Origin: Pseudomonadota bacterium
GTDB taxonomy: Bacteria; Pseudomonadota; Gammaproteobacteria; Poriferisulfidales; JAYYZZ01
Direction of reading: 5' to 3'
Assembly: GCA_036687665.1 (NCBI GenBank)
Contig: JAYYZZ010000004.1
Location: 22,330-86,329 of the forward strand
Length of the DNA: 64,000 bases
The notes beneath the pieces were generated by a model that searched no databases, had not been told where the DNA came from, and saw nothing but the letters and a program-made list of their open reading frames with translations. Below, one piece after another: positions 19,990 through 60,630 of this stretch. How positions within the stretch are numbered: position 1 is the stretch's first letter; every line of letters starts with the position of its first letter. A program made the translations under genes and the position numbers.

Positions 19990-20000
19990 GATGCAATAAT

Positions 20001-20150
20001 ATGTCTTTTTTATGTGAATTATGGGCTTTTCTTAGTGCTAGAAAAAAATATTGGTTATTGCCAATAATAATTCTCGCTGTCTTATTTGGTGGGTTACTTG
20101 TGCTTGCACAAGGTTCTGCAGTCGCTCCCTTTATTTATACAATTTTTTAA
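20001..20150 (+). CDS. DUF5989 (SxtK-like) small membrane protein; not in the ORF track
   Basis: My own translation: MSFLCELWAFLSARKKYWLLPIIILAVLFGGLLVLAQGSAVAPFIYTIF (49 aa). This is the characteristic RKK.WLLP...GS..APFIYT.F pattern of the family usually found beside NodU/CmcH carbamoyltransferases. Confidence 0.7.
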   Translation: MSFLCELWAFLSARKKYWLLPIIILAVLFGGLLVLAQGSAVAPFIYTIF

Positions 20151-20167
20151 AGATAAGGAGCAGATAG

Positions 20168-41386: not shown

Positions 41387-41404
41387 CGCGATTAGAAAGA
41401 AGAT

Positions 41405-42907: not shown

Positions 42908-42912
42908 GTGTT

Positions 42913-44985: not shown

Positions 44986-45429
44986 CTAGAAAGTTGTGTT
45001 GTATTTAACAGAGGGCAGTGTTTCTTGTGGAAGTGATTTTGGGCAATCAGCTAATGTTTGATTAATCAATAATAATTCTTCAACAAAATTCTCATCACCT
45101 GGTTTTGTTATAGACAGGTCTTCTAACGCAAAATACATTTTTGCTTTTTTTTCATGTAGTTTTTTATAAACTTCATTTCTTTTTTCTTTATCTTCTGGAA
45201 GCATAAATAAACTACACATCAGTATTCCTTCTATTGTTGAAAGCTCTTCTAGTACAGCCTCAAGCTGGATATAACAGTTTTCAAACATGAATTCGTTTAC
45301 AGGCAGCATATATTCTAGATTATTTTTCTCAGCATAAGTTCGTAAAAGTATATTTTGTGCTGGGGCTGGAATAGTCATGCCGCCAAAAGATCGCGATGTA
45401 ATATAAGTTCTATAACCTGAGCGCTTCAT
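44986..45429 (-). CDS. small uncharacterised carbohydrate-cluster protein (possibly the LIC12192-type 'sporadic carbohydrate cluster' family)
   Basis: About 147 aa from the ATG at 45429; the TTG at 45456 would overlap the upstream gene. GYRTYITSRSFGGMTIPAPAQNILLRTYAEKN. Directly downstream of a 2OG oxygenase-like gene. Family assignment is from memory only. Confidence 0.4.
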   Translation of the reverse strand: MKRSGYRTYITSRSFGGMTIPAPAQNILLRTYAEKNNLEYMLPVNEFMFENCYIQLEAVLEELSTIEGILMCSLFMLPEDKEKRNEVYKKLHEKKAKMYFALEDLSITKPGDENFVEELLLINQTLADCPKSLPQETLPSVKYNTTF

Positions 45430-45434
45430 TATTC

Positions 45435-46262
45435 TTATGACTTGTCTTTTTTCCAATTTGGAAATTTACAATCCATCCCAATGCGACTTATTATCTTAGT
45501 AGTTATTGGCAAATAAAAAGATCCGATTTTTTTCTCAAAGTTTCCGTAGGGAGTAAATAGCCCAGTAATGCGACAATTGAGCGACCATCTGGTTTCTTTT
45601 TCTTCGTTGACAATATTGCCGTGAAATAAATTGGTTGAAAAGAGTAGAACCTTCCCATAGGGGACGTCTAGCCAAACTAGATCATCTTTAACTTCTTTGA
45701 ATATCTCGCTCATCCCACCTTGATCATATTCTGGTAACTTAGGCACGATTTCCCGATTTTTTTCAGGGGGCAGGATAAACATTGATTTTGTCTTGTAGGT
45801 ATCAACCAGCGGAAGCCATTCTACAACTTGAAATGGCGTTTCACCGCCATGTAAATCTGTGTGCATGGATAAAATTGAACTTTCATCATGCGGCAGTTGT
45901 ATAGACAGATTTACACGATTTTGCATAGCCAGCTCATTTCCAACTAACTGATCGATATATGGTTTTGCTAGGCTGTAGTAAGTGGGTCTCAGCCATGTTT
46001 CTTTGTTTAATGTTTGATAGATATGCAACCTAAAATCGTTTACTTGCTCTTTATCTACTTCTTTTTGTATGTTATTTAGAAAGTCTGCATTATCTTTAGG
46101 AGCAGGTATACCCAGAAAAGCACAAGCAATTTCGACGATCTTAGACCGCATCTCATCAAGCAGAGAAGTGTCTACAACATCCCTTATAACATAGCCATAT
46201 TTCAGAAAGCTTTCTGAAATTTCTATTTCTTCTTTGCTGTAGAAATTTTCTCTTGGAGGCAT
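45435..46262 (-). CDS. 2OG-Fe(II) oxygenase-like protein
   Basis: 275 aa. Motifs MHTDLHGG (HxD), NLFHGN (distal His) and RWSLNCR. Confidence 0.55.
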   Translation of the reverse strand: MPPRENFYSKEEIEISESFLKYGYVIRDVVDTSLLDEMRSKIVEIACAFLGIPAPKDNADFLNNIQKEVDKEQVNDFRLHIYQTLNKETWLRPTYYSLAKPYIDQLVGNELAMQNRVNLSIQLPHDESSILSMHTDLHGGETPFQVVEWLPLVDTYKTKSMFILPPEKNREIVPKLPEYDQGGMSEIFKEVKDDLVWLDVPYGKVLLFSTNLFHGNIVNEEKETRWSLNCRITGLFTPYGNFEKKIGSFYLPITTKIISRIGMDCKFPNWKKDKS

Positions 46263-46284
46263 TAATTTATACTCATTTTCTGTT

Positions 46285-47424
46285 TTAGGTTAAAAGTTCT
46301 TTTTCCATTTCGTGAAATACTTTTTTTATTATATTCAAATCGTCTTTTTCCCAAACCCATTTTTGATAAGCTGCAGCAAATACTGGTTGCTCATTTAACA
46401 CTAAGCCATTTCTTTTAAGAGCGCGAGCTTGCATTTGCGGTGAGGAACTTGGTTTTACAAACAGCGCATACCTACACTTTTTATTATACCAACATAATTC
46501 CATAGGACCATGCGCAATAGCCATGTTTAACCATGCTTCTTGGTAAAGAGCCATTCTTGTTTCAATGTTATAACTCGCTTCTAGGCAAATTGGAAACTGT
46601 TTCATCTTTTCTGGTATACCATTTTTAGCCAAGTCTATGTCGGGAACAAAGATAGGGCTATAGTTATTTTTTTGTAGATAACTTGCGAATGCTATCCAAG
46701 ACTCTAAATTACTATTACGCTCTTTCATGTAATCATATTGTCTTAAACTAATAATAATAGTTTTTCTTTTGCCAGATGTGTTTTTTATATATTCTTTTAT
46801 TTGTTGTATTTCTTCTGCACGCGCCCTAAAACAATCAACAACAGCTTGAGATGTCTTTTTTAAAGTTTGCGTTACATTGTTGGGCAGTGCACAAGGAAAA
46901 GTTAAAGAGTAAATAGATGGCAATATCGATGCTTTATCTTTGAGGAAATGTTTAATATCTGACCTGTTTTCCAACCTTGTATATGATTTGCAACTTGGTA
47001 AAAGACGAAATATCGGCACCATCATATTTTCAATTCTCCATATACGTTCACTTACGTTTACTACTGATTGGTATTCAGGCATTTCTTCTCTCACCCCATC
47101 TAACTTCCCAGGAACTATTATGGGATGTATGTGTGTGTGGCCTAACCTATGTCGATGTAAATCACATACAGCAAGCCTAGAAACTGTATCAAAGGTAACA
47201 GAGCAATATTCTAGATCAAGCACACAATATAAAGTTTTTTCTTTCTGTGAATTTTTGTTGCTGGCATACTGTTCATATATGTATGCGGCTGCGCTCCTGA
47301 GTAGCCCGGGACTTACAAGATAGAAGTACAGGCGTGAAACTAACCACCCCAACCCTTTTGTAAAAATTTTTTTAGGCACCAGTAGGGCGCGTGTTGCAAG
47401 TTCTTTTAAAAATGTTTTATGCAT
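46285..47424 (-). CDS. hypothetical protein, possibly GT-B/GT9-like
   Basis: 379 aa and first gene of the minus run. RKTIIISLRQ...ESWIAFASYLQKNNYSPIFVPD and MALYQEAWLNMAIAHGPMELCW loosely resemble the C-terminal half of heptosyltransferase-type GT-B enzymes. Weak. Confidence 0.3.
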   Translation of the reverse strand: MHKTFLKELATRALLVPKKIFTKGLGWLVSRLYFYLVSPGLLRSAAAYIYEQYASNKNSQKEKTLYCVLDLEYCSVTFDTVSRLAVCDLHRHRLGHTHIHPIIVPGKLDGVREEMPEYQSVVNVSERIWRIENMMVPIFRLLPSCKSYTRLENRSDIKHFLKDKASILPSIYSLTFPCALPNNVTQTLKKTSQAVVDCFRARAEEIQQIKEYIKNTSGKRKTIIISLRQYDYMKERNSNLESWIAFASYLQKNNYSPIFVPDIDLAKNGIPEKMKQFPICLEASYNIETRMALYQEAWLNMAIAHGPMELCWYNKKCRYALFVKPSSSPQMQARALKRNGLVLNEQPVFAAAYQKWVWEKDDLNIIKKVFHEMEKELLT

Positions 47425-47508
47425 GGAGTTAGTTCAGAATAAAATATGCTGTATACTCTAATAGACTTATGTGAAACCATTTCGTTTCTGCAAGATCGTA
47501 TTTTCTAG

Positions 47509-47514
47509 TATAAT
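47509..47514 (+). promoter_or_regulatory. candidate -10 hexamer (TATAAT) in the divergent intergenic region upstream of the SIS-isomerase operon
   Basis: Perfect TATAAT 52 nt upstream of the ATG at 47566. No convincing -35 element. Confidence 0.25.
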
Positions 47515-47565
47515 ACCATCATATTCATTGTTAATTAGGTTCCTAAAAAAGAGAGCAAATAAAAT

Positions 47566-48165
47566 ATGACAGATCAAGGAAAGAGCTTTGTATCGACTTA
47601 TTTTTCACAGTCAGCTGCTATATGTGATCAAATCGATCATGAAAAAATAGATCAGCTTGCAAATTCGCTCAAGGAGCTCAGGGAAAGAGGTGGGCGCTTA
47701 TTTATATTAGGCGTCGGAGGTAGCGCAGGGAATGCAACACATGCAGTAAACGACTTCCGCAAACTTTGTGATATCGAGTCGTACGCCCCAACCGATAATG
47801 TTTCTGAATTGACAGCGCGTACAAATGATGAAGGCTGGGATACGGTTTTTGCAGCATGGTTAAGAACTAGCAAGGCATCTGAAAACGATGCGATTCTAGT
47901 TTTCTCTGTTGGCGGCGGCAACATCGAACACAATGTCAGCATGAACTTAGTAGAAGCACTCAAAGAAGGTAAGCAACGAGGCCTGAGTATATTCGGTGTA
48001 GTAGGGCGTGATGATGGTTACACAGCTAAAGTTGCAGATGTTGCGATTGTTATACCAACACTAGATCCTAATTTAATAACACCTCATACCGAAGCATTTC
48101 ATGCTGTAGTTTGGCACTGTCTTGTTTCTCATCCAGCGCTGCAAACACACAAAACAAAGTGGTAG
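47566..48165 (+). CDS. SIS-domain sugar-phosphate isomerase (GmhA / LmbN-like)
   Basis: 199 aa. Motifs RLFILGVGGSAGNATHAVNDFRK and VFSVGGGN. Confidence 0.8.
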   Translation: MTDQGKSFVSTYFSQSAAICDQIDHEKIDQLANSLKELRERGGRLFILGVGGSAGNATHAVNDFRKLCDIESYAPTDNVSELTARTNDEGWDTVFAAWLRTSKASENDAILVFSVGGGNIEHNVSMNLVEALKEGKQRGLSIFGVVGRDDGYTAKVADVAIVIPTLDPNLITPHTEAFHAVVWHCLVSHPALQTHKTKW

Positions 48166-48179
48166 ACTTATAACTAAAA

Positions 48180-48890
48180 ATGACTACTCTAAAAATAAAA
48201 ATCTTTGCAGACGGTGCAAACAAAGAAGACATACTGAGCTTGCACAAGAATGATCAAATAAAAGGTTTTACTACTAACCCAACATTGATGAAGCAAGCTG
48301 GTATAACAGATTACGAAAATTTTGCAAAAGATATACTGACGCATATTAAAGATAGACCAATATCGTTTGAAGTTTTTGCTGACGACTTTGACGAAATGAA
48401 AAAGCAAGCTGGCATTATAAACTCGTGGGCTGAGAATGTTTATGTCAAGATTCCCGTCACAAACACAAAATCTGAATCATCTTGCCCTTTAATAAAAGAA
48501 TTGAGTTCGCAAGGTATTAAGCTGAACGTCACGGCAATCATGACAGAAGATCAGGTGAGCGCTGTTTCAGATGCATTGGATGTTGCAACACCGGCAGTTG
48601 TATCTGTCTTTGCTGGCAGAATAGCTGATACAGGAGTCGACCCAATTCCTGTAATGTCAAATTGTCTGGAGATTTTAAAGGAGAGACCAAAGGCGGAATT
48701 GTTGTGGGCAAGTCCTAGAGAGTTACTGAATGTATTCCAAGCCGACCAGATCGGCTGTCACATTATAACAGCTACCCCTGACGTCTTAAAAAAACTCACA
48801 CTTGTTTCTAAAGATTTGACACAATATTCTCTTGAAACAGTGAAGATGTTTTTTGATGACGCATCAGCAGCCGGATACTCAATAAAATAG
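48180..48890 (+). CDS. transaldolase family protein, short Fsa/TalC type
   Basis: 236 aa. Motifs GFTTNPTL, Schiff-base Lys context VYVKIPVTN, NVTAIMT and VSVFAGRIAD. Confidence 0.85.
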   Translation: MTTLKIKIFADGANKEDILSLHKNDQIKGFTTNPTLMKQAGITDYENFAKDILTHIKDRPISFEVFADDFDEMKKQAGIINSWAENVYVKIPVTNTKSESSCPLIKELSSQGIKLNVTAIMTEDQVSAVSDALDVATPAVVSVFAGRIADTGVDPIPVMSNCLEILKERPKAELLWASPRELLNVFQADQIGCHIITATPDVLKKLTLVSKDLTQYSLETVKMFFDDASAAGYSIK

Positions 48891-48920
48891 ATATATTGGA
48901 AGACTATTCAGTTAAGGAAA

Positions 48921-49925
48921 ATGTTAAATAAGGTTCTCATCACAGGTGGGGCAGGTTACTGCGGCAGTTTGCTCACACCTCAGTTATTAAAGGCGGGTTA
49001 TCAAGTCACTGTCTACGACATTATGTATTTCAGTGACAATTTTCTCCCCAAGGATGATCCAAATCTTACTGTCGTGCACGGAGACATAAGAGATATAGAG
49101 AAGTTATCTGAGGCGTTACAGGGCATGGATGCAGTTATACATTTGGGCTGCATTTCAAATGACGCCAGCTTCGAATTAGACGAGCAACTAAGCACCTCGG
49201 TGAATTTAGATGCCTTTGAGCCATTAGTTGTGGCCGCGAAAGCGGCAGGGGTACAAAGGTTTGTGTATGCATCATCAAGCTCGGTTTACGGTGTTTCTGA
49301 TGAGCCAGATGTTACCGAAGATCATCCGCTTGTTCCTTTAACTTTATATAATAAGTTTAAAGGCCTTTGCGAACCGATATTACAAGACCATACGGATGAA
49401 AATTTTGTTGGTGTTATTTTTCGACCAGCAACTGTTTGTGGGTATGGCCCTCGTCAACGCTTGGATGTATCTGTAAATATCCTTACCAATCATGCTGTAA
49501 ATAATAATAAGATCACAGTATTTGGTGGCGAGCAATTGCGTCCTAATCTTCATATTCAGGATTATTGTGATCTTTGTCAGCTTTTACTTGAATCACCTAG
49601 TGAGAAAGTTTCTCGCGAGGTATTTAATTGTGGGTTTCAAAATATGAGTATTATGGATATTGCAAAGTTGGTGAAAAAAGTTGTTGAACAAGAATATCCT
49701 GAAAAAGATAATTTGGAGATTGTTACAACACCAACTGATGATATCAGGTCCTACCATATTAACTCTGATAAAATAAATAATGTATTAGGGTGGTCACCAA
49801 AACACTCTGTCGAAGATGCAATTAAAGATCTATGTTTTGCATTTCGTAAAGGTAAATTGCCTGACAGTCTTGATGATGATATATATTTTAACGTTCGACG
49901 CTTAAAAAGAATCAATGCCGCCTAA
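48921..49925 (+). CDS. NAD-dependent epimerase/dehydratase family (extended SDR)
   Basis: 334 aa. Motifs VLITGGAGYCGS, SSSSVYG and YNKFKGLCE. Confidence 0.85.
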   Translation: MLNKVLITGGAGYCGSLLTPQLLKAGYQVTVYDIMYFSDNFLPKDDPNLTVVHGDIRDIEKLSEALQGMDAVIHLGCISNDASFELDEQLSTSVNLDAFEPLVVAAKAAGVQRFVYASSSSVYGVSDEPDVTEDHPLVPLTLYNKFKGLCEPILQDHTDENFVGVIFRPATVCGYGPRQRLDVSVNILTNHAVNNNKITVFGGEQLRPNLHIQDYCDLCQLLLESPSEKVSREVFNCGFQNMSIMDIAKLVKKVVEQEYPEKDNLEIVTTPTDDIRSYHINSDKINNVLGWSPKHSVEDAIKDLCFAFRKGKLPDSLDDDIYFNVRRLKRINAA

Positions 49926-50916
49926 AAAAAATATCGCTGTAGTCACAGGAGGTGCAGGATTTATAGGTAGTCATATGGTTGATGTATTACTGGACAATGA
50001 TTACCAGGTAAGAGTGATAGATAATTTAGTAGGCGGACGTGAAGATAATCTCACTCACCACAGTAATAACAAAAATATATCTACAGAATGGGCGGACATA
50101 AGAAACTTATCACCTGAGTCCAATATTTTTAGTGATGCAAAATATGTTTTCCATTTTGCAGGTATAGGCGACATTGTTCCATCAATAGTTTCACCAGTCG
50201 AATATATGTCTACAAATATACAGGGCACTGTCAAAGTACTTGAGTGTGCAAGGCATGCTGGTGTAAGCAAATTTATTTATGCAGCATCTTCTTCTTGTTA
50301 TGGTATTGCTGATGTACCGACCACAGAAGATCATCCAATCTCCCCTTTATACCCATACGCTATGTCTAAATACCAGGGCGAGCAAGCCTGTTTTCATTGG
50401 CATAGTGTTTATAAATTGCCTGTGAACTCAATTCGTATTTTTAATGCATATGGGACTAGGGTTAGAACTACCGGGGTATACGGCGCAGTATTCGGTGTAT
50501 TCTTTAAACAAAAATTAGCAGGAAAGCCTTATACAGTTGTTGGAGATGGTTCTCAATCTAGAGATTTTATATATGCATCAGATGTAGCAAGAGCTTTTTT
50601 AGCTGCCGCTGAAGCAGAAAGACAAGGAGAAATTTATAATCTAGGTGCTGGCGATCCACAAACAATAAATTATTTAGTCGAATTGCTCGGCGGTGAAAAA
50701 ATTTATATTCCTAAGAGACCTGGCGAACCTGATTGTACTTGGGCAGATATATCAAAAATAAAAAAACAACTTCGTTGGGAACCCAATGTATCCTTTGATG
50801 ATGGTGTCCGTATGATGTTAGAAACAATCAATGCATGGGAGGACGCGCCTCTATGGGATCCAGAGTCTATACAAGAAGCGACCGTAGATTGGTTTAAATA
50901 TATGGGTGATAAGTAG
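49915..50916 (+). CDS. NAD-dependent epimerase/dehydratase family (extended SDR)
   Basis: 333 aa. Motifs VVTGGAGFIGSH, ASSSCYG and YAMSKYQGE. 11-nt overlap with the upstream SDR. Confidence 0.85.
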   Translation: MPPKKNIAVVTGGAGFIGSHMVDVLLDNDYQVRVIDNLVGGREDNLTHHSNNKNISTEWADIRNLSPESNIFSDAKYVFHFAGIGDIVPSIVSPVEYMSTNIQGTVKVLECARHAGVSKFIYAASSSCYGIADVPTTEDHPISPLYPYAMSKYQGEQACFHWHSVYKLPVNSIRIFNAYGTRVRTTGVYGAVFGVFFKQKLAGKPYTVVGDGSQSRDFIYASDVARAFLAAAEAERQGEIYNLGAGDPQTINYLVELLGGEKIYIPKRPGEPDCTWADISKIKKQLRWEPNVSFDDGVRMMLETINAWEDAPLWDPESIQEATVDWFKYMGDK

Positions 50917-50942
50917 TTCACCCAGCACTCTTATTGCATGAT

Positions 50943-50971
50943 TTGACCTAGCACTACTACACCATTAGACT
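50943..50971 (+). promoter_or_regulatory. candidate sigma70-type promoter (TTGACC - 17 nt - TAGACT)
   Basis: Read directly in the 88-nt gap upstream of the ATG at 51004. -35 TTGACC at 50943-50948, -10 TAGACT at 50966-50971, 17-nt spacer. Confidence 0.35.
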
Positions 50972-51003
50972 TCTTCTCTCTTCATAATATTTATAGCGCA
51001 CTG

Positions 51004-52560
51004 ATGAACAACAGCCTTAAAAAGCTCTCCGAGCAATATAAACATAAGTTAGTTGATGCAAGTCAGCTAAAGAAAAATATTGGCGAGCGACCAAGAGAGA
51101 AAAAAGTCATCATGTGTCACGGTGTCTTTGATGTCGTGCATCCCGGACACTTGCGACATCTTTTATATGCAAAAAGCAAAGCAGATATTTTAGTAGCGAG
51201 CTTGACAGCAGATACACACATAAAGAAGGGAATATATCGTCCGCATGTCCCAGAGGAAATGAGAGCTTTAAATTTAGCAGCATTTGAAATTGTTGATTAT
51301 GTGTTGATTGATCAAGAACCCACTCCCTTAAAAAATATTTCTAAGTTACAGCCAGATTTTTATGCTAAGGGTTATGAATATGTTGAAGAAGGAATGCCAG
51401 TAAAAACAGAAGAAGAAGCAGAAATTATTGAAAAATATGGAGGAAAAATAATTTTCACTCCAGGAGATATAGTTTATTCATCTTCGGCTTTGATTGAGCT
51501 CGAAACGCCTGCAATAAACATAGAAAAACTGCTTGCACTAATGGAACAAGAAAGCGTGAGTTTTAATGACCTCCGAGCAATACTGGAAAAGCTTGGTAAT
51601 TTCACCGTACATATTGTTGGAGATACAATCGTAGATAGCTATACGCAAACTGCAATGATAGGCGGACAAACAAAAACTCCAACAATGAGCGTTTTATATG
51701 AAGGAAAAAAAGATTATGTCGGGGGAGCAGGCATAGTTGCAAAACACCTTGTAGCAGCTGGTGCAAAAGTCGTTTTTTCTACAGTGCTTGGTAATGATAA
51801 TTTAAAGGATTTTGTTTTAAATGATTTAAAGGAAAACGAAATAGATTGCCATGCAATTATAGACCCAACAAGACCTACTACTAATAAAAATGCAATCGTG
51901 TCATCTGGTTATAGATTATTAAAGATTGATACATTAGATAATAACTCTATAGATGATAGTGTTTTGAAAGGGTTAACCGATAAAATAAAAAATACAAAAA
52001 GTGACGCAGTTATCTTTAGTGACTTTAGGCATGGAATTTTTAATCGTCGAACAATTGAGCCCCTAGTTGATTCAATTGATGCAAAGTGTTTTAAAGCTGC
52101 TGACAGTCAGGTTGCGAGCCGCTGGGGGAATATTACTGAGTTTAAAGACTTTGATTTAATCACTCCAAATGAAAGAGAGGCGAGGTTTGCTTTAGCTGAT
52201 CAGGATTCAGGGGTTAAACCATTGGCACAGGACTTATATGACGCTGCTGGTTGTAAACTTCTGATTATGAAATTAGGTGCACGCGGAGTATTGACGTGCC
52301 GAAGTAAGGAACACGGCCTTGATGATGTTTTTGTTGTAGATAGTTTTGTTGAGAATCTTATCGATGCTGTAGGTGCAGGCGATGCATTACTAGCATATTC
52401 AACACTTACGATGTTGGCCAGTGATTCAGCAGCTATATCAACTATTATAGGCTCAATCGCAGCTGCCTGTTTATGCGAGAAAGACGGGAATATACCAATT
52501 ACGCCTACACAAGTTTTAGATAAGATTGACAATATTGAAAAATATGCGAATTTCGGTTAA
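51004..52560 (+). CDS. bifunctional cytidylyltransferase-fold nucleotidyltransferase (N-terminal) / PfkB sugar-phosphate kinase (C-terminal); HldE-like with swapped domain order
   Basis: 518 aa. N-terminal CHGVFDVVHPGHLRHL (HxGH). C-terminal half VHIVGDTIVDSY...GGAGIVAKHL...DAVGAGDALLA (RfaE domain I / PfkB signature). Confidence 0.8.
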   Translation: MNNSLKKLSEQYKHKLVDASQLKKNIGERPREKKVIMCHGVFDVVHPGHLRHLLYAKSKADILVASLTADTHIKKGIYRPHVPEEMRALNLAAFEIVDYVLIDQEPTPLKNISKLQPDFYAKGYEYVEEGMPVKTEEEAEIIEKYGGKIIFTPGDIVYSSSALIELETPAINIEKLLALMEQESVSFNDLRAILEKLGNFTVHIVGDTIVDSYTQTAMIGGQTKTPTMSVLYEGKKDYVGGAGIVAKHLVAAGAKVVFSTVLGNDNLKDFVLNDLKENEIDCHAIIDPTRPTTNKNAIVSSGYRLLKIDTLDNNSIDDSVLKGLTDKIKNTKSDAVIFSDFRHGIFNRRTIEPLVDSIDAKCFKAADSQVASRWGNITEFKDFDLITPNEREARFALADQDSGVKPLAQDLYDAAGCKLLIMKLGARGVLTCRSKEHGLDDVFVVDSFVENLIDAVGAGDALLAYSTLTMLASDSAAISTIIGSIAAACLCEKDGNIPITPTQVLDKIDNIEKYANFG

Positions 52561-52569
52561 GCGATAATT

Positions 52570-53496
52570 ATGCGAATACTGATTGTAGGTTTAGGTGTGC
52601 AAGGCTATAAAAGAAGAGACTTTGCTAACGCTGATTATGTTGCGTCAGTCGACCCAGTGAATAAAGAGGCTGATTACAAGAACATCCAAGATGTATCTTT
52701 AGATGATTTTGATGGAGCATTATGTTGTGTCCCAGATGCACCAAAAGCCCAATTAGCTAGATATCTTTTAAGCCATGGTAAACACATGCTTATAGAGAAA
52801 CCTTTGTGGACAGAAAGCGACAAAGACTTAAAGGAACTGCAAAGCATGGCAAACCAGAATAACGCTGTGTGTTATACCGCATATAACCACAGGTTTGAGC
52901 CCCACTTTATAACTATGCGTGATTTAATAAAATCAGGTGAGCTTGGAAAGATTTATTCATGCCGTATGTTTTATGGCAACGGAACTGCTTCGTTAGTAAA
53001 AGAGTCACGCTGGCGAGACAAAGGGGCAGGAGTTTTGCCTGACCTGGGTTCTCATTTACTTGACACAGCAAACTTTTGGTTTGATATAGACCGAGAGGAC
53101 TTCCTTTTACATTCTTGCAATAATTTTGAAAACGAAAGCCCAGATCATGTAATTATTGCCTCAGAATCAACACTACCAAGATTAGAATTTGAGATGACTT
53201 TGCTTTCTTGGAGAAATCATTTTACATGTGATGTATACGCCGAAAAAGGCAGTGCTCATATAAGTTCTCTTTGTAAGTGGGGGCCGTCAACATTTGTTCA
53301 TAGAAAACGTGTTTATCCTAGCGGCGTACCAGAGGAAGATGTGGTTACTTTGGAGCAGGCTGACCCGACTTGGGAGGCAGAATATATTCATTTTAAGAAA
53401 TTATGTAAAACAAAGACAAATACTGATTTAACAAATGATATTTGGATAAATCGCACTATTAGAAATTTGAGTGATATTGCAGTAGGAAAAAAATAG
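52570..53496 (+). CDS. Gfo/Idh/MocA family oxidoreductase
   Basis: 308 aa. Motifs MRILIVGLGVQG and HMLIEKPL. Confidence 0.8.
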   Translation: MRILIVGLGVQGYKRRDFANADYVASVDPVNKEADYKNIQDVSLDDFDGALCCVPDAPKAQLARYLLSHGKHMLIEKPLWTESDKDLKELQSMANQNNAVCYTAYNHRFEPHFITMRDLIKSGELGKIYSCRMFYGNGTASLVKESRWRDKGAGVLPDLGSHLLDTANFWFDIDREDFLLHSCNNFENESPDHVIIASESTLPRLEFEMTLLSWRNHFTCDVYAEKGSAHISSLCKWGPSTFVHRKRVYPSGVPEEDVVTLEQADPTWEAEYIHFKKLCKTKTNTDLTNDIWINRTIRNLSDIAVGKK

Positions 53497-54780
53497 ATGA
53501 GTTCATTAACAGTCGGCTATGCAGGAATGACCCATCTCGGTATTGTGTCAGGGTCAGTTACAGCACTGAAAGGGTTTCAGACAATTTGTTTTGATGACAA
53601 TGCTGAGCTTATAGCAGACATTAAAAATGGGAAATTACCTATAGCGGAGCCAAAAATTCAAGAGACAATTGCTTCGAATGGCACTTCTCAAGTTTTTACA
53701 CACGATCCCTCAGATTTGAAATCATGTGACATAATTTTTATATCTCCGGATGTCCCAACGGACGACCAAGGTAACAGTAGTTTAGATAATGTTCTCTCTT
53801 TGGTTAATATTGTAATATCACATATAAAAAAAGATGCAATTTTAGTTATCTTGTGCCAAGTCCCGCCCGGTTTCACACGTCAAATATCATTTAAGAAAGC
53901 ACAGCTTTATTATCAGGTTGAAACATTGGTTTTTGGCGATGCGATAGAACGTGCAACATCCCCAGAAAGAATAATAATTGGCTGCGATCAACCAGGCTCA
54001 GATCTTCCGCAAAGCTACAACAGTTTTCTTGAATGTTTTAAATGTCCAATATTAAAAATGAAATATGAGAGCGCAGAACTTTCTAAAATTTCTATTAATT
54101 TATGTTTGGTGTCGAGCATAACTGTAACTAATGCCTTGTCAGAAATTTGTGAAAAGGTTGGCGCTGACTGGGGTGAGATTATGCCAGCACTACAATTGGA
54201 TAAACGTATTGGAAAGTTTTCTTATCTGTCTCCTGGGTTAGGTTTATCTGGCGGGAATTTAGAGAGAGATCTAGTTACGGTTATAAAACTAGCAAAAGAA
54301 CATCAAACAAATGTAGATGTTATCAAGTCGTTTATTGATGATAGCGATTATCGAAAACAGTGGGCTTCTAAGATCGTAAAAAATTTAACTTCTAATACCA
54401 GCTCAAAACCTTCGATATGTATTTGGGGTCTTGCTTATAAAAAAAACACACACTCAATTAAAAATTCAGCCTCAATTGCAACGATAAAAGCACTTCAAGA
54501 GTACTTCTTTAAGGTGTATGACCCTGTTGTAAAATCTTTAGACCAGGATTTTCAAAATATCGTTTTTAGTGAAACTGCACTCGAAGCTCTAGATAAAGCT
54601 GATATTCTAATGGTCCTGACTCCATGGGATGAGTTTGCAAGTTTTGATACCGAGGAAATTTGTGAAAGAATGAATGGTGCTATCATAATTGACCCATATA
54701 AGATGCTAAATCATAATAGTGAATCGTCGTTGGATATTGACTACTACACTATTGGCGCCCATAAAGATAAAAAAGAATAA
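53497..54780 (+). CDS. UDP-glucose/GDP-mannose dehydrogenase family protein, apparently lacking the catalytic Cys
   Basis: 427 aa. N-terminal VGYAGMTHLG...NGKLPIAEP. Where the family has GfGGsC.pKD this protein reads GLGLSGGNLERD (Asn at the Cys position by eye). Its ATG directly abuts the upstream TAG stop. Confidence 0.7.
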   Translation: MSSLTVGYAGMTHLGIVSGSVTALKGFQTICFDDNAELIADIKNGKLPIAEPKIQETIASNGTSQVFTHDPSDLKSCDIIFISPDVPTDDQGNSSLDNVLSLVNIVISHIKKDAILVILCQVPPGFTRQISFKKAQLYYQVETLVFGDAIERATSPERIIIGCDQPGSDLPQSYNSFLECFKCPILKMKYESAELSKISINLCLVSSITVTNALSEICEKVGADWGEIMPALQLDKRIGKFSYLSPGLGLSGGNLERDLVTVIKLAKEHQTNVDVIKSFIDDSDYRKQWASKIVKNLTSNTSSKPSICIWGLAYKKNTHSIKNSASIATIKALQEYFFKVYDPVVKSLDQDFQNIVFSETALEALDKADILMVLTPWDEFASFDTEEICERMNGAIIIDPYKMLNHNSESSLDIDYYTIGAHKDKKE

Positions 54781-54784
54781 AATC

Positions 54785-55681
54785 ATGTTGCAACATTTAA
54801 ATGCTACACAAACAAAACCAAAAAGAGTTGTCATCATCGGCGCAAGTGGATTTGTAGGACAGTCAATACAAGAAAGATTGCAGGCGTCAGATGTAGAAGT
54901 GTTGCCCGTATCTAGTTCTGATATCAATCTTCTTGAGCCAAACAGTGACAAGCAGCTGTCAAAACTATTGCAACAAAAAGATTCTATTGTTACCGCCTCA
55001 GCTATTGCTCCTTGCAAAGACTTGTCAATGTTAAAAGACAATATCATTTTAATGGAAAATTTATTTTCAGCAGTGCAGTTAGCAAATGTTAGTCATATTC
55101 TAAATATAAGCTCAGACGCTATCTACACAGATAGCACTGAACCATTAACAGAAGACTCTGCAACATCTCCTAACTCAATACATGGGATCATGCACCTTAC
55201 TCGCGAAAGAGTGTTGCAGGATATGTTTACTGATATCCCTTGCGCAACAATAAGACCAACATTGATATATGGGGTGAAAGATCCACACAATGGTTATGGG
55301 CCAAACCAATTCAGAAGATTAGCTGCTTCAAAAAAGCCTATTATTCTGTTTGGCAAGGGCGAAGAAAGGAGAGATCATGTTTTAATAGATGATGTTGCTG
55401 AATTAGCATATAGAATTTTAATGTATAAAAGCATAGGTTCACTGAACGCGGCAACAGGTAAGGTTGTATCATTTTATGATGTCGCAGAGTTAGTAACGGG
55501 ATGTTTTGATTATTCTGTTGCCATTCAAACCTCGCCAAGGAATGGACCAATGCCACACAACGGTTACCGCCCATTTAGCGCAGAGCAAACACAACACGCA
55601 TTTTCAGATTTCACATATACACATATAGAAGACGGAATTAAAAAAGTACATACTGAAATGATGGAGAACATAGATGGCTGA
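54785..55681 (+). CDS. atypical SDR / NAD(P)-binding Rossmann protein
   Basis: Start moved to the ATG at 54785. Has VVIIGASGFVGQ, but the expected YxxxK position reads HGIMH (by eye). Confidence 0.65.
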   Translation: MLQHLNATQTKPKRVVIIGASGFVGQSIQERLQASDVEVLPVSSSDINLLEPNSDKQLSKLLQQKDSIVTASAIAPCKDLSMLKDNIILMENLFSAVQLANVSHILNISSDAIYTDSTEPLTEDSATSPNSIHGIMHLTRERVLQDMFTDIPCATIRPTLIYGVKDPHNGYGPNQFRRLAASKKPIILFGKGEERRDHVLIDDVAELAYRILMYKSIGSLNAATGKVVSFYDVAELVTGCFDYSVAIQTSPRNGPMPHNGYRPFSAEQTQHAFSDFTYTHIEDGIKKVHTEMMENIDG

Positions 55682-56333
55682 AGTAGATTTACTAAGAGCT
55701 TTACCGAAAACTAAAAGAAATATTGAAATGCGTTCTGATGCAAAAGACCCTGAGGTAATAAGGATTTCTAAGGAATATGGTGAACTTTATTTTGATGGCC
55801 CTCGCGATTATGGTTATGGAGGTTACAAGTATGATGGGCGCTGGATTCCTGTTGCGAAAGATATTGTTGAGCATTTTAGTTTAAAACCGGGCATGCGGGT
55901 TTTAGATGTTGGCTGCGCAAAAGGCTTTTTAGTAAAAGACTTAATGATTGCTTGCCCAGGGCTAGAGGTATTTGGTATTGATGTGTCCGAATATGCGCTT
56001 ATGAATTGTGAAAGCGAAGCTGTGGGACGACTTCAGATTGGAAGTGCAGATAGATTGCCATTTCCTGATGAAAGTTTTGATTGCGTACTTTCACTCAACA
56101 CTATTCATAATTTACCAAGAGAGCGTTTGATTGTTGCTCTGAAAGAGATACAGAGATTGTCAGGAGGTAAAGCATTTGTGCAGGTTGATTCTTATAGGAC
56201 ACCTGAAGAAAAAGAAATTTTTGAAAGCTGGGTGTTAACAGCAGAATTTCATGATTATCCAGATGAGTGGATTACAGTTTTCAATGAAGCCGGTTATACT
56301 GGTGATTATTTCTGGACAATAATTAATAGCTAA
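55674..56333 (+). CDS. class I SAM-dependent methyltransferase
   Basis: 219 aa. Motif I VLDVGCAKGFLVKDL and FDCVLSLNTIHNL. 8-nt overlap with the upstream gene. Confidence 0.8.
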   Translation: MAEVDLLRALPKTKRNIEMRSDAKDPEVIRISKEYGELYFDGPRDYGYGGYKYDGRWIPVAKDIVEHFSLKPGMRVLDVGCAKGFLVKDLMIACPGLEVFGIDVSEYALMNCESEAVGRLQIGSADRLPFPDESFDCVLSLNTIHNLPRERLIVALKEIQRLSGGKAFVQVDSYRTPEEKEIFESWVLTAEFHDYPDEWITVFNEAGYTGDYFWTIINS

Positions 56334-56365
56334 TTACATTATAATAACAAGAAGAGAGAACCTGA

Positions 56366-57193
56366 ATGAGCGCTAAAAATAATAATAGCTTTGATTTTAA
56401 AGCAGCAAGACAGCGCTGCATGAAATTCAGACGCCGCATACTTGATATTTCGCAAACTGTTGTTGCTCTGCATATTGCTCCTGCTTTCTCATGCTTGGAG
56501 GTTGTAGATTTAATCTACCATGGTCTTATGCGTGAAAATTCTTCTGCTCACAAAGATGCTTTTTTAATGTCCAAAGGCCACGGATGTATGGCACAGTATG
56601 TTGTACTAGAAGAGCTTGGCGTGCTAAGCAATGATGATCTTGGTAAATATTGCACACCCGAGGGAATTTTAGGTGCACATCCTGATTATGAGACACCAGG
56701 GATAGAAGCAGCAACAGGTTCTTTAGGTCATGGTCTTTCCATGGCAGTTGGTATGTCTTATGCAGAAAAAATCAAAGGGACAGACAGCACCATCTATACA
56801 GTATTAAGTGATGGTGAAGTGCAAGAAGGCTCAACTTGGGAAGCTGTTCTTATGGCATCCACTTTTAATACCACAAATCTTATTGCATTTGTAGATTATA
56901 ACGATTTTCAAAGTTTGGGCAGGACAAGTGAAACTCACCCAACTTTTTACCCATTAACGGATAAATTTGTAGCATTTGGTTGGGAGTCTGTTGAAGTGAA
57001 TGGACACAACGCCGAGGAAGTTTATGCAGCAGTTCAGCAAAGAAAAGGAGACAAACCTTTAATGATTGTCTGTAAAACAATAAAAGGACGAGGGGTAAGT
57101 TATATGGAAAGTGTTCCGATATGGCACTATCGTGCGCCGAATGCAGAAGAGTATGAGCAGGCTATTAATGAATTAAAAGAGATATCATCATGA
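56366..57193 (+). CDS. transketolase, N-terminal (ThDP pyrophosphate-binding) subunit
   Basis: 275 aa. Motifs GHGLSMAVGM and LSDGEVQEGSTWEA. Confidence 0.88.
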   Translation: MSAKNNNSFDFKAARQRCMKFRRRILDISQTVVALHIAPAFSCLEVVDLIYHGLMRENSSAHKDAFLMSKGHGCMAQYVVLEELGVLSNDDLGKYCTPEGILGAHPDYETPGIEAATGSLGHGLSMAVGMSYAEKIKGTDSTIYTVLSDGEVQEGSTWEAVLMASTFNTTNLIAFVDYNDFQSLGRTSETHPTFYPLTDKFVAFGWESVEVNGHNAEEVYAAVQQRKGDKPLMIVCKTIKGRGVSYMESVPIWHYRAPNAEEYEQAINELKEISS

Positions 57194-58104
57194 GAAATAA
57201 GTTTGCTGATACCCTTTATAAGTGCGCTGTTGAGGATTCGGACATAGCAATTGTTGTCGCAGATATTTCTCCGGCAGGTAGTATGGAAAATTTTAGACAA
57301 GAGTTCCCGCATCGTTTTTTAAATGTAGGTGTTGCAGAGCAGTCTATGATTGGAATCTGCGCAGGAATGTCTTTAAGAGGGTTGCAACCTTTTGCTTACA
57401 CTATTGCAACCTTTACATTGTATCGTCCTTTTGAATTTGTGCGTGACGATCTGTGCTACCAAAACTTACCTGTTACGATTGTCGGCGTAGGCGGCGGTGT
57501 AGTTTATTCAACTCTTGGAGGAACGCATCATTGCCAGGAAGATGTTGCGATAGCTAGCGCAATCCCTAATATGTCTGTAATAGCTCCTTGTGATCCAGAA
57601 GAAGCCGAGGCTGCAACTAAATACTGTGCTGTTCAAAAAAATGGTCCCATTTATTTGCGTTTAGGTAAAGCTGGAGAGCCTACTCTTACAGCCAACGCTG
57701 ATACTCCGTGGGAATTTGGAAAGATACGTTATCTTCAGAAGGGTAACGATGTTTGTATTTTGAGTTACGGTATCATTATGAAAAAATCTCTTGAAGTTGC
57801 ACAAACACTTGAAAAACTTGGCAAGTCAGTTTCTCTAGTTTCAGTCCATACCGTGAAGCCTTTAGATATACCAGGCATAGAGACTGCACTGTCAGCACAT
57901 TCAGAAGTTGTTGTTATCGAAGAACATGCACCATCTGGAGGTTTGAGTCACAGAGTGAAAGAAGTTGCGTGGAATATGCAAGCTTCTTGCAAGCTGCATA
58001 CTTTTACCTTGCAAGACCGTTTTTTACATAATTACGGGGATCATGATGATTTATTAGCAGCGCACGGGCTTTCTGTGGATAAGATAGTTGCTGGAATAAA
58101 ATAA
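57190..58104 (+). CDS. transketolase, C-terminal (pyrimidine-binding) subunit
   Basis: 304 aa. Motif FLNVGVAEQSMIGICAGMS. ATGA overlap with the N-terminal subunit. Confidence 0.88.
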   Translation: MRNKFADTLYKCAVEDSDIAIVVADISPAGSMENFRQEFPHRFLNVGVAEQSMIGICAGMSLRGLQPFAYTIATFTLYRPFEFVRDDLCYQNLPVTIVGVGGGVVYSTLGGTHHCQEDVAIASAIPNMSVIAPCDPEEAEAATKYCAVQKNGPIYLRLGKAGEPTLTANADTPWEFGKIRYLQKGNDVCILSYGIIMKKSLEVAQTLEKLGKSVSLVSVHTVKPLDIPGIETALSAHSEVVVIEEHAPSGGLSHRVKEVAWNMQASCKLHTFTLQDRFLHNYGDHDDLLAAHGLSVDKIVAGIK

Positions 58105-58105
58105 C

Positions 58106-59326
58106 CTACTTCATTAACTTCATAATTTCATCAGAAATATGTTGGCTCAGAGGGAACGAGCACGTGAATGCGGGAGAAACAGCGTTTAGTAAATGAAAAG
58201 ATTTATCATCCCCTTCGTATACAAAATCCATTTCTAAACTATTATCATTTGTGTTTAACAGTTGCGCACGTATCGCAGGTCTTCCCCATTTTAAAAAATC
58301 TGAACTATTAACATCATTTACCATTTTTGAAGCCAGCTGTATGAGGTACTCTTTTGAGTATTTCTTCATTTCTTCTAACGCAAGACCACGAAATTGATTC
58401 TTATTTGCCAAAAACATCTCACTTTGTGCCTTTATAATGTTCATAAATTCTTTAGCACTAAAGTTTTCTACGCCCTTGTAGTGCTCTTTCCAAAATGCTG
58501 GAATAGCAGTCGGGCCAATTTTCGCGCTCCCTTCTAATGTGACTGTAAAATGCACACCAAGAAAAGGTTGATCGATATTTGGCACAGGATAAATGTTGGT
58601 TTTTAACCAACCAGGTTTTTTCTTAAGGTAAAGATATAGACCCTTAAAAGGCATGATCATGTAGTTTTTAGAGAAACCGTAATCTTTTGCAATTGTGTCT
58701 GCATGCAATCCTGCACAATTTACAAGGTAGCCGTATTCAACTGAACCTTTCGAAGTATTAATTTTATTTTTACTTCTTCCAACGTATTTTGTTTCTAGCA
58801 TCAAAGAAATATCAGCATCTAATATGTCTTTTTTTAGTGATTTCATGACGGAGACAGGATTGACTGTGGATGTGTTGGGGGAATACAACGCTCTTGAAAA
58901 TGTTTTTACTTTTGGTTCTATTTTTTTTGCCTCATCTTTAGAAATTATCTCTACGCTTACCCTATTTCTTTTTGCTCTTTCTTCCAAAGTGTCAAGAACA
59001 AGTTCTTCTTCTTCGTTTTGTGTAACAACAAGTTTGCCACATTTGTTGATACCAATATTCTTTTCTTCACAATATTTACGCAAGGCTTCGTTTCCGTCAC
59101 GCGTGAATTGGGCTTTTAGTGAATCTTTTGTATAGTAAAATCCTGCGTGCAGAACTCCGCTATTTAAACCACTGGCATGCTGATAAATATCATTTTCTTT
59201 TTCAATAATGAGAATTTTTGCTGTGGGTATTTTTCTTTTCAATGCATGGGCGATACTTATACCCATTACTCCAGCACCAATAATTACAAAATCAGTATAC
59301 TTAGGCGGTTGGTCCAATTGTGGCAT
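58106..59326 (-). CDS. lhgO: L-2-hydroxyglutarate oxidase/dehydrogenase family FAD oxidoreductase
   Basis: 406 aa, collinear by eye with E. coli LhgO: DFVIIGAGVMG, NSGVLHAGFYYTKDSLKAQF, PFKGLY, PFLGVHFT, GPTAIPAF and IRAQLL. Confidence 0.8.
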   Translation of the reverse strand: MPQLDQPPKYTDFVIIGAGVMGISIAHALKRKIPTAKILIIEKENDIYQHASGLNSGVLHAGFYYTKDSLKAQFTRDGNEALRKYCEEKNIGINKCGKLVVTQNEEEELVLDTLEERAKRNRVSVEIISKDEAKKIEPKVKTFSRALYSPNTSTVNPVSVMKSLKKDILDADISLMLETKYVGRSKNKINTSKGSVEYGYLVNCAGLHADTIAKDYGFSKNYMIMPFKGLYLYLKKKPGWLKTNIYPVPNIDQPFLGVHFTVTLEGSAKIGPTAIPAFWKEHYKGVENFSAKEFMNIIKAQSEMFLANKNQFRGLALEEMKKYSKEYLIQLASKMVNDVNSSDFLKWGRPAIRAQLLNTNDNSLEMDFVYEGDDKSFHLLNAVSPAFTCSFPLSQHISDEIMKLMK

Positions 59327-59334
59327 AGTTCTTA

Positions 59335-60627: not shown

Positions 60628-60630
60628 TAT

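Follow-up and report, generated by a model that had tools for sequence, protein, structure and literature searches.

A conserved transaldolase-containing operon for a candidate higher-carbon nucleotide sugar in a gammaproteobacterial polysaccharide island

The operon and its relatives

We analysed a 64,000-nucleotide stretch of gammaproteobacterial DNA (the window; contig JAYYZZ010000004.1 of GCA_036687665.1, positions 22,330 to 86,329), in which an earlier note had singled out seven genes between 47566 and 54780 as a candidate pathway for an octose or another higher-carbon nucleoside diphosphate (NDP) sugar. Coordinates are window positions, open reading frames (ORFs) are those of the window ORF list, and domains were called from Pfam and NCBIfam. 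The seven genes were confirmed in position, family and plus-strand orientation, and comprise a GmhA-like SIS isomerase, a short transaldolase (TAL), two short-chain dehydrogenases/reductases (SDR1 and SDR2), a nucleotidyltransferase/kinase fusion, a Gfo/Idh/MocA oxidoreductase (Gfo) and a protein with the UDP-glucose dehydrogenase (UGDH) fold. They are co-directional and mostly abutting, as had been described, with spacings of 14, 30, -11, 87, 9 and 0 nt by ORF coordinates, but the run does not stop at 54780. It extends as eleven plus-strand genes to 58104, with abutting or overlapping genes that encode a third SDR (SDR3), a methyltransferase (MT) and the two subunits of a split transketolase, and a convergent gene begins at 58106. 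The start of SDR3 follows the gene call in a relative with a 95% identical fusion protein (L089). A scan for consensus promoters over 46800-59000 returned 41 sites compared with 37 in shuffled sequence, a terminator scan likewise performed no better, and the RfaH ops/JUMPStart element GGCGGTAG was not found anywhere in the 64-kb window.

Table 1. Operon features in the window, their presence in the 42 related loci with enough flanking DNA (full loci), and example type II cassettes
Feature	Position	Strand	Basis	Presence in full loci
Divergent intergenic region, 141 bp, putative promoter region	47425-47565	.	Minus-strand ORF end (47424) to SIS start (47566)	
Divergent GmhA-like SIS isomerase, putative ketose-phosphate/aldose-phosphate isomerase, 199 aa	47566-48165	+	PF13580 (SIS_2)	30/42
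Short (class 3) transaldolase, TAL, 236 aa	48180-48890	+	TAL_FSA, TIGR02134, PF00923	40/42
SDR1, extended SDR	48921-49925	+	PF01370; nearest solved structure 6vo6/6vo8	40/42
SDR2, extended SDR, NDP-sugar 4-epimerase-like	49915-50916	+	PDB matches	38/42
Nucleotidyltransferase/kinase fusion, 518 aa	51004-52560	+	PF01467 (residues 38-130), PF00294 (residues 236-502)	
Gfo/Idh/MocA oxidoreductase, 308 aa	52570-53496	+	PF01408, PF22725, PF02894	42/42
UGDH-fold protein without catalytic Cys, 427 aa	53497-54780	+	PF03721, PF00984, PF03720	42/42
SDR3, RmlD/GDP-fucose-synthase-like, atypical active site	54785-55681	+	PF01370, PF04321	37/42
Class I S-adenosylmethionine-dependent methyltransferase, MT, 219 aa	55674-56333	+	PF08241, PF13649	38/42; 55-78% identical among relatives carrying MT
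Split transketolase, thiamine diphosphate (ThDP)-binding N-terminal subunit	56366-57193	+	PF00456	ThDP enzyme 37/42: split transketolase 25, PDH-E1-like alpha/beta pair 12
Split transketolase, pyrimidine-binding/C-terminal subunit	57190-58104	+	PF02779, PF02780	
HAD phosphatase				31/42
SDR4				35/42
DegT aminotransferase				14/42
NUDIX hydrolase at 3' end of type I cassettes	e.g. L004 16397-19044			16/42
Type II cassette, Lawsonia intracellularis plasmid 3	L091 13712-22063			
Type II cassette, Rhizobium jaguaris pRCCGE525c	L092 7820-15699			

An identical fusion protein with the same neighbours, likewise without a phosphatase gene, was found on four independent metagenome contigs, and the relative with a 95% identical fusion protein has the same arrangement; the gene order is therefore not an assembly artefact. 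The operon lies inside a polysaccharide island of ~48 kb (13572-61638) that encodes GT4 glycosyltransferases, a Wzm/Wzt-type ABC transporter, a carbamoyltransferase, O-methyltransferases, a Glf-like mutase and a long stretch of ORFs without family assignment, a setting that supports the proposal of a dedicated nucleotide-sugar operon within a surface-glycan locus. Housekeeping genes flank the island, with pyrG, kdsA, eno, ispDF and, further on, hflXKC, hisS and purA on one side and queA and tgt on the other; the contig order queA-tgt-yajC-secD is typical of Gammaproteobacteria.

Relatives were surveyed with the fusion protein as the query in one genome per species (~185,000 species representatives), 363 of which carry a relative of the fusion gene. 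Thousands of relatives of the fusion protein are 67-70% identical, and between phyla the cassette proteins share 45-75% identity. The best 80 of the 363 carriers, most of them metagenome-assembled genomes (MAGs), belong to the Burkholderiales, Nitrospirota, Rhodospirillales (Skermanella, Nisaea, Magnetospirillum and Azospirillum), Hyphomicrobiales/Xanthobacteraceae, other Gammaproteobacteria, Acidobacteriota and Gemmatimonadota. A search of plasmids for the fusion gene gave one distant match only (32% identity). A link to the O antigens of Escherichia coli was dropped, since blastn with the fusion gene of a MAG labelled 'Enterobacteriaceae' found no match in 5,426 E. coli genomes.

Comparison of the relatives' loci by tblastn of every window protein revealed a common order, SIS - HAD phosphatase - TAL - SDR1 - SDR2 - fusion - Gfo - UGDH-like - SDR3 - MT - SDR4 - two-subunit ThDP enzyme, in which SDR4 is 4,6-dehydratase-like and which often ends with a DegT aminotransferase and a NUDIX hydrolase. 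We refer to this arrangement as the type I cassette. The same 11-14 genes recur in one order across phyla (Table 1), so that isomerase, transaldolase and fusion do co-occur across genomes, and the transaldolase, whose presence had been pointed to as a departure from characterised heptose loci, is found in 40 of the 42 full loci. The cassette is conserved and widely spread, and in the window its genes form one dedicated nucleotide-sugar operon in a polysaccharide island. Six alphaproteobacterial cassettes (L069, L070, L074, L080, L081 and L083) start directly at TAL, with no SIS or HAD gene within 10 kb, and end with the aminotransferase and NUDIX genes. In L081, the only one of the six that was scanned upstream, an ABC ATPase-domain protein and a NusG-like gene precede TAL, and two acetyltransferase genes stand at the end.

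A second form of the cassette (type II) was found by tblastn of TAL against plasmids, which identified copies of 60-64% identity on plasmid 3 of Lawsonia intracellularis and on chromids of Rhizobium, together with one Streptomyces transaldolase in an unrelated context. The type II SIS (57-61% identity) and TAL (60-64%) are clear orthologues of the type I proteins, and the HAD-IIIA phosphatase is 30% (Lawsonia) or 51% (Rhizobium) identical. The further type II genes encode an epimerase-type SDR, a UGDH-like protein in which Thr replaces the catalytic Cys (GGTLARD), a Gfo protein, a GHMP kinase and an NTP-transferase; there is a TAL but no transketolase. Scores against the heptose models are again low relative to their cut-offs (HddA 168/600, HddC 92/300, GmhB 119/178 and GmhA 60/209 bits). 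Type II cassettes are abundant in Rhizobium species, Aurantimonas, Methylobacter tundripaludum and many metagenomes, and when the R. jaguaris UGDH-like protein was used as the query, the hits were cassette relatives only, with no Lmb protein among them. The TAL-SIS-HAD trio stands beside the PfkB-containing fusion in type I and beside the GHMP kinase and NTP-transferase in type II, and hence appears, from gene order and homology, to be a single module that has been joined to either of two unrelated sets of activation genes; a Cys-less UGDH-fold protein and Gfo accompany it in type I and type II alike. The R. jaguaris copy has an extra classical short-chain SDR and is followed by an IS66 transposase; Lawsonia, the host of the other type II plasmid, is a pig pathogen.

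Properties of the encoded enzymes

The best PDB matches of the SIS protein are GmhA structures (E ~1e-11), but it scores only 54.9 bits against the GmhA model TIGR00441, the cut-off being 209.45, and no more than 47 bits against other GmhA models with cut-offs of at least 265. Residues were compared by alignment to chain 2xbl of Burkholderia pseudomallei GmhA, for which we take the site numbering to be one less than that of the chain. Two His residues are kept, whereas Asp occupies the position of Glu68 and Glu that of Gln175. The loop opposite STSG-K-S of GmhA, which is presumably the phosphate-binding loop, reads SVGGG-NIEHNV-S with a 6-aa insertion. These changes are common to the orthologues. 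The subfamily comprises 399 clusters at 50% identity (E<=1e-30), and seven of ten longer members are natural fusions to a HAD domain (in both orders), to an NTP-transferase or to a weakly sulfotransferase-like stretch (the fusion proteins include P0242, P0247, P0253, P0258, P0277 and P0251); a TAL-SIS fusion was not found among the ten. Among the 150 best SIS representatives (all E<1e-42), ten were looked up, four of which carry names, and none is named LmbN.

The transaldolase passes the TIGR02134 model (356 bits, cut-off 282) and is ~50% identical to the S. aureus enzyme of that family, which presumably includes the sole pentose-phosphate pathway transaldolase of staphylococci. Alignment to 3s0c and 1vpx, and then to the orthologues, indicates that it keeps every position that we take to be catalytic in the Thermoplasma acidophilum transaldolase: Asp6, Asn28, Glu60, Lys86 (presumably the Schiff-base lysine), Asn108, Thr110, Ser130, Phe132, Arg135 and Arg169. 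All of these, including both phosphate-binding Arg residues, are also conserved across the orthologues. By these residues the enzyme is predicted to be catalytically complete, and the Phe at the Phe132 position would mark it as a transaldolase and not a fructose-6-phosphate aldolase (FSA). In a neighbour-joining tree without bootstrap, the transaldolases of both cassette types form their own clade, apart from the S. aureus, Ligilactobacillus, Treponema and Streptomyces-plasmid enzymes; they share at least 60% identity with one another and 46-53% with the housekeeping or catabolic members of TIGR02134.

The activation enzyme, which had been called HldE-like, does combine a kinase with a nucleotidyltransferase, but in the reverse of the HldE order, since residues 35-165, at the N terminus, form the nucleotidyltransferase and residues 195-504, at the C terminus, the kinase. 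It reaches 139 bits of the 521 demanded by the HldE model NF008454, and 125/345 and 93/181.5 bits with the domain models. Its nearest structures are an HldC-like protein (5x9q, 54 bits) and HldA (4e84, 42 bits), and the HxGH and GAGD motifs are found in 84/84 and 82/84 orthologues, respectively. Other enzymes of heptose pathways fare similarly: the three SDRs score 77, 110 and 42 bits against the HldD model TIGR02197 (cut-off 274.6), and the HAD protein of the relatives falls far below the GmhB equivalog cut-off, so that the heptose-enzyme look-alikes stand at about one quarter to two thirds of the equivalog cut-offs. A domain scan found neither the GHMP kinase HddA nor the guanylyltransferase HddC in the window operon. 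Judged by these scores, the cassette enzymes are not housekeeping heptose enzymes. Since the nearest solved structures are GmhA, the HldC-like 5x9q and HldA 4e84, the chemistry is nevertheless probably of the heptose-activation type, with a substrate or product that is probably not the canonical one.

These data bear on the simplest explanation of the locus, namely that housekeeping pentose-phosphate genes and heptose genes of the lipopolysaccharide core came to be adjacent by chance. The automatic names of the proteins (transaldolase, 'rfaE bifunctional protein' and 'D-sedoheptulose 7-phosphate isomerase') would fit this explanation. It is effectively refuted by scores that fall well short of the cut-offs for GmhA, HldE and HldD, the reversed domain order, the conservation of 11-14 genes in one order across phyla, the position in a polysaccharide island between glycosyltransferase, Wzm/Wzt and sugar-modifying genes, and the presence of the fusion gene in only 363 of ~185,000 species representatives. 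The placement in housekeeping clades, named at the outset as an outcome that would speak against a new pathway, is at odds with the cassette-specific transaldolase clade and the low equivalog scores.

Among the putative tailoring enzymes, the UGDH-like protein has the three UGDH domains expected from its earlier assignment and exceeds the TIGR03026 cut-off (221 versus 190 bits), but the catalytic Cys is missing. Alignment to 4a7p places GGNLERD opposite GSCFPKD of the Sphingomonas UGDH; the nucleophile of the GxGGxCxxKD motif is absent, and Asn stands in place of the Cys in 72 of 72 type I orthologues. The other UGDH-family gene in the window (59335-60627, minus strand) keeps GGHC. In the UGDH mechanism the thiol of the catalytic Cys forms a thiohemiacetal and then a thioester. 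As neither could form in the absence of the Cys, the protein is predicted from this established mechanism not to make a uronic acid and should stop after a two-electron oxidation. The abutting Gfo gene accompanies it in all 42 full loci. PDB relatives of the Gfo protein are weak (at most 47 bits), and its GxGxxG, EKP and DLGSH motifs are conserved among the orthologues.

SDR1 has its best PDB match in 6vo6 (E 4e-35, ~125 bits); we take 6vo6/6vo8 to be Cj1427 of Campylobacter jejuni. The YxxxK motif of SDR1 is intact (YNKFK) and conserved. Cj1427 is the GDP-heptose C4 dehydrogenase of C. jejuni (PMC10680097). SDR2, also with an intact YxxxK, best matches 4-epimerases acting on UDP-GlcNAc, UDP-Glc and UDP-GlcA (6dnt, 4zrm, 6zl6, WbpP and WbgU; E to 4e-48). 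SDR3 keeps the Rossmann GxxGxxG and SSDA(V/I)Y motifs and has HGxMH at the YxxxK position, with His replacing both Tyr and Lys, in the window and in ~60/64 orthologues; on these motifs we class it as an atypical SDR.

The N-terminal transketolase subunit best matches 6yak (E 4.5e-44), described as the 'N-terminal component of the split chain transketolase', and the ThDP-binding motif (GDG..EG) and the Glu of the pyrimidine domain (AEQ) are conserved. In 12 of the 42 full loci, often at the same position, an alpha/beta pair resembling the E1 component of pyruvate dehydrogenase (PDH) but scoring below the PDH cut-offs replaces the split transketolase. E1-like pairs, AviB1/B2 and Pau11/12, have been proposed to install two-carbon (C2) branches on sugars (PMC4753412). 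This proposal, together with the occupation of the ThDP slot by such pairs in 12 loci, favours a tailoring role for the ThDP enzyme, which may add a C2 unit to a carbonyl formed by SDR1 or the UGDH-like protein, over one in precursor supply.

A UGDH fold without Cys should stop at a carbonyl, and an aldehyde would be a natural acceptor for a transaldolase or transketolase. This raises a different route, in which TAL, the transketolase or both act late, on an NDP-sugar aldehyde or ketone made by the UGDH-like protein, to give a sugar of nine to twelve carbons, the SIS, HAD and kinase enzymes merely providing a heptose or hexose starter. The retention of TAL in loci without SIS and HAD and the presence of a ThDP-dependent C2-transfer enzyme in 37 of the 42 full loci would agree with such a late extension. 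We nevertheless regard it as improbable: TAL keeps both phosphate-binding Arg residues typical of enzymes with sugar-phosphate substrates, it adjoins SIS and HAD in most loci, all three have been carried together into type II, and we know of no transaldolase that acts on a nucleotide sugar.

The island around the operon

Upstream of the operon, three minus-strand ORFs (44986-47424) are divergent from it, have no Pfam match (limit 1e-3) and are kept beside it in independent metagenome contigs. Counted over the wider interval 22022-47424, and with these three included, the island has at least 15 ORFs, each of 150-485 aa, that lack a Pfam match (limit 1e-5). At the other end, three minus-strand genes (58106-61638) converge on the operon and encode a DAO-family FAD oxidoreductase, a canonical Cys-containing UGDH-family dehydrogenase and an epimerase/dehydratase SDR. 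This trio also follows the operon in L089, with its 95% identical fusion protein, but not in other phyla.

The genes at 17941-22009, which encode a Wzm/Wzt-type ABC-2 transporter pair, an SxtJ-like small protein and a two-domain carbamoyltransferase, suggest an ABC-transporter-dependent and possibly carbamoylated polysaccharide. A fatty-acid-hydroxylase-family protein, a PhyH-like dioxygenase, two O-methyltransferases (TylF-like and Methyltransf_3) and a UDP-galactopyranose-mutase-like flavoprotein, encoded at 23176-24297 and 40328-44097, constitute extra tailoring capacity of the island that is unrelated to the cassette.

Candidate products and relation to known pathways

The cassette represents an uncharacterised and phylogenetically widespread variant of the NDP-heptose and NDP-octose pathways. 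Its closest parallel in overall logic is the formation of the lincosamide amino-octose. In this pathway the transaldolase LmbR converts ribose-5-phosphate and either fructose-6-phosphate (F6P) or sedoheptulose-7-phosphate (S7P) to octulose-8-phosphate (PMC5854111), which is isomerised by LmbN (PMC5854111, PMC4351081). In the lincomycin and celesticetin pathways these two enzymes are followed by the kinase LmbP, the phosphatase LmbK and the guanylyltransferase LmbO, and then by LmbM, LmbL, LmbZ/CcbZ and LmbS/CcbS. We take LmbP to be a GHMP kinase and LmbO a member of the NTP_transferase family, and LmbL and LmbZ to belong to the UGDH and Gfo families; the papers call the latter two a 'dehydrogenase' and an 'oxidoreductase'.

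The operon most likely builds a nucleotide-activated sugar of seven or, with better odds, eight carbons for a surface polysaccharide. For the window, we judge the chances to be evenly balanced that 47566-58104 is one operon for a nucleotide-activated, heavily tailored higher-carbon sugar of the island's ABC-transporter-type polysaccharide. By analogy with the lincosamide route, an eight-carbon (C8) backbone would be the single most likely reading, though one that we hold with as much doubt as confidence. This reading draws on the fixation of TAL in the cassette, the cassette-specific TAL clade, the remodelled isomerase, the failure of the four activation enzymes of both cassette types to reach the heptose equivalogs and the class parallel with the Lmb enzymes.

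The scheme that we infer, including its substrates, the C8 backbone, the order of tailoring and the C2 addition, would run as follows. TAL would move a three-carbon dihydroxyacetone unit from F6P or S7P onto an aldose phosphate, most likely ribose-5-phosphate, to yield octulose-8-phosphate as LmbR does, and the divergent SIS protein would convert the ketose phosphate to an aldose phosphate. The PfkB half of the fusion could then phosphorylate the anomeric position, a GmhB-like phosphatase, encoded in most relatives' cassettes but having to come from elsewhere in the case of the window, would remove the terminal phosphate, and the cytidylyltransferase-like half of the fusion would make the NDP-sugar. 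Tailoring might involve the Cj1427-like C4 dehydrogenase, the 4-epimerase-like SDR, and the Cys-less UGDH-like two-electron dehydrogenase acting with Gfo on the side chain, either in oxidation or in a sequence of oxidation, dehydration and reduction. The atypical SDR and the methyltransferase may contribute further steps, and the split transketolase may add a two-carbon unit to a sugar carbonyl.

Several observations weigh against an octose or in favour of an unusual NDP-heptose of ordinary size. On this alternative, S7P would give, for example, a methylated, epimerised, 6-oxidised or C2-branched glycero-manno-heptose, and TAL, with or without the split transketolase, would only raise the supply of S7P. 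TAL may simply interconvert F6P and S7P, and together with transketolase it could turn two F6P into S7P and xylulose-5-phosphate, which amounts to plain heptose supply. It passes TIGR02134, a family that we take to include housekeeping transaldolases, with a full transaldolase active site. The nearest characterised relatives of every activation enzyme are heptose enzymes (GmhA, HldA, HldC, Cj1427 for SDR1 and, for the relatives' HAD protein, GmhB), and the activation module of the window is HldA/HldC-like, of the ADP-heptose type, not a GHMP kinase with an NTP-transferase as in lincomycin biosynthesis. Within 10 kb, SIS is missing in 12 and HAD in 11 of the 42 full loci, and TAL is retained in 10 of the 12 SIS-less ones. 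The window itself, as had been remarked earlier, lacks a phosphatase and an aminotransferase that orthologous cassettes contain (31/42 and 14/42, respectively): tblastn found no homologue of HAD, SDR4 or the aminotransferase in the 64 kb, and there was no DegT match among the window ORFs scanned against Pfam. Were the substrate a heptose, so that housekeeping GmhA and GmhB could take over, loci without SIS or HAD would be expected. Finally, heptoses are common in bacterial glycans, whereas we know of no octose in any bacterial polysaccharide, and in our literature search octose phosphates and NDP-octose appeared only in lincosamide and apramycin contexts.

We regard the heptose alternative as a serious contender that falls short of an even chance. 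Characterised ADP- and GDP-heptose loci are generally known to draw on the S7P pool without a transaldolase of their own, and our literature search gave no counter-example. In the cassette, TAL is more constant than SIS or HAD and belongs to a cassette-specific clade, type II has TAL without a transketolase, and the PDH-E1-like pair of 12 loci cannot supply S7P. Moreover, the look-alikes reach only part of the equivalog cut-offs and the counterpart of the phosphate loop in SIS is remodelled. For these reasons we keep the octose as the preferred backbone. A fuller version of this reading is possible but distinctly tentative. It supposes a non-antibiotic NDP-octose pathway in which a transaldolase-built C8 sugar is activated by the reversed fusion, oxidised by the Cys-less UGDH and Gfo, methylated and extended or branched by a nucleotide-sugar transketolase with a C2 unit to a C10-class surface monosaccharide in hundreds of environmental species (Nitrospirota, Burkholderiales, Rhodospirillales and marine Gammaproteobacteria). 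A related sugar of eight carbons would then be the product of type II (Rhizobium, Lawsonia and Methylobacter), and lincosamide sugar formation would have branched off from this wider family as a specialised form.

An octose or larger sugar, if confirmed, would constitute the first nucleotide-octose route outside antibiotic biosynthesis and a new class of monosaccharide for the surface glycans of mostly uncultured, ecologically important lineages, among them the nitrite-oxidising Nitrospira, Burkholderiales of soils and Gammaproteobacteria of the sea. New enzymology would come with it: a UGDH fold that carries out a two-electron oxidation, a sugar nucleotide as the substrate of a transketolase or E1-like enzyme, and an HldE-type fusion in reversed order. 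Should the product prove to be a heptose, this is still a large, highly conserved and uncharacterised pathway whose genes are mislabelled by automatic annotation as 'rfaE', 'phosphoheptose isomerase' and 'UDP-glucose 6-dehydrogenase'. Carriers are available in culture, with Nisaea denitrificans DSM 18348, Skermanella stibiiresistens SB22, Magnetospirillum sp. UT-4 and Azospirillum sp. TSO22-1 for type I and Rhizobium jaguaris CCGE525, R. tubonense and Methylobacter tundripaludum for type II, which makes the question directly testable.

A literature search found no study of the cassette. Three other sugars were considered as products. Erwiniose and caryophyllose are made by YerE-type ThDP enzymes that act on CDP-4-keto-3,6-dideoxyglucose with keto-acid donors (PMC9306805); they were rejected because none of the YerE-route enzyme set is present in the cassette. 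Bradyrhizose is associated with the 11-gene 'gdh' cluster of photosynthetic Bradyrhizobium (PMC4743980). This link was unsupported, in that the published gdh primers and the encoded peptides match no cassette gene beyond chance; the 120 proteins most closely related to a Xanthobacteraceae fusion protein also include none from Bradyrhizobium.

Relative to the Staphylococcus-type TIGR02134 transaldolases, the window TAL has all the catalytic residues but belongs to the separate, cassette-linked clade. The sugar-branching systems AviB1/AviB2, Pau11/Pau12 and YerE share with the cassette a ThDP enzyme among the tailoring genes, which in the cassette has two subunits; YerE is a single-chain flavoenzyme and differs in this respect, while the PDH-E1-like alpha/beta pair of 12/42 loci resembles AviB1/B2. 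The split transketolase of the window would imply a glycolaldehyde donor, unlike the acetyl donor of those systems, and to our knowledge no transketolase acts on a nucleotide sugar.

The modification of the capsular GDP-heptose of C. jejuni is linked to the cassette by SDR1, which has 6vo6/6vo8 as its nearest structures. The two systems share the logic in which C4 of the NDP-heptose is oxidised before epimerisation and reduction by C3/C5 epimerases and C4 reductases (PMC10680097). The C. jejuni pathways differ in producing GDP-alpha-heptose through HddA and HddC, in using a cupin-type epimerase without counterpart in the cassette, and in having no TAL, Gfo, UGDH-like or ThDP enzyme. The ADP-L-glycero-beta-D-manno-heptose pathway (GmhA, HldE or HldA plus HldC, GmhB and HldD) employs the same folds for the isomerase, kinase, nucleotidyltransferase and, in the relatives, phosphatase. 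From this pathway the cassette is distinguished by its sub-equivalog scores, the reversed fusion order, the loop insertion in SIS and the built-in transaldolase.

The lincosamide pathway is the only characterised nucleotide-sugar route in which, as in the cassette, a dedicated transaldolase acts first and a GmhA-like isomerase second. Taken by enzyme class alone, the likeness extends to the transaldolase, the SIS isomerase, the kinase, the nucleotidyltransferase, the epimerase and, if LmbL and LmbZ are UGDH-family and Gfo-family proteins, the 'dehydrogenase' and the 'oxidoreductase'. The HAD phosphatase and the aminotransferase are further members in the relatives, which makes the parallel closer than the earlier note had it. 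There are clear differences. The window has no phosphatase (LmbK class) or aminotransferase (LmbS class) gene of its own and carries a PfkB/cytidylyltransferase-like fusion, the GHMP kinase and NTP_transferase occurring only in the type II relatives; it adds the Cj1427-like SDR, the atypical SDR, the methyltransferase and the split transketolase; and its host is Gram-negative, with the genes in a polysaccharide island and not an antibiotic cluster. The octose logic that the earlier note had borrowed from this pathway therefore stands as a class-by-class parallel but does not extend to the activation module of the window. It is type II that comes closest, with eight classes that, on the families taken here for the Lmb proteins, are those assigned to LmbN, LmbK, LmbR, LmbM, LmbL, LmbZ, LmbP and LmbO, and with the R. 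jaguaris order Gfo-kinase-nucleotidyltransferase resembling lmbZ-P-O, so that the analogy with lincosamide octose biosynthesis is supported at the level of enzyme class.

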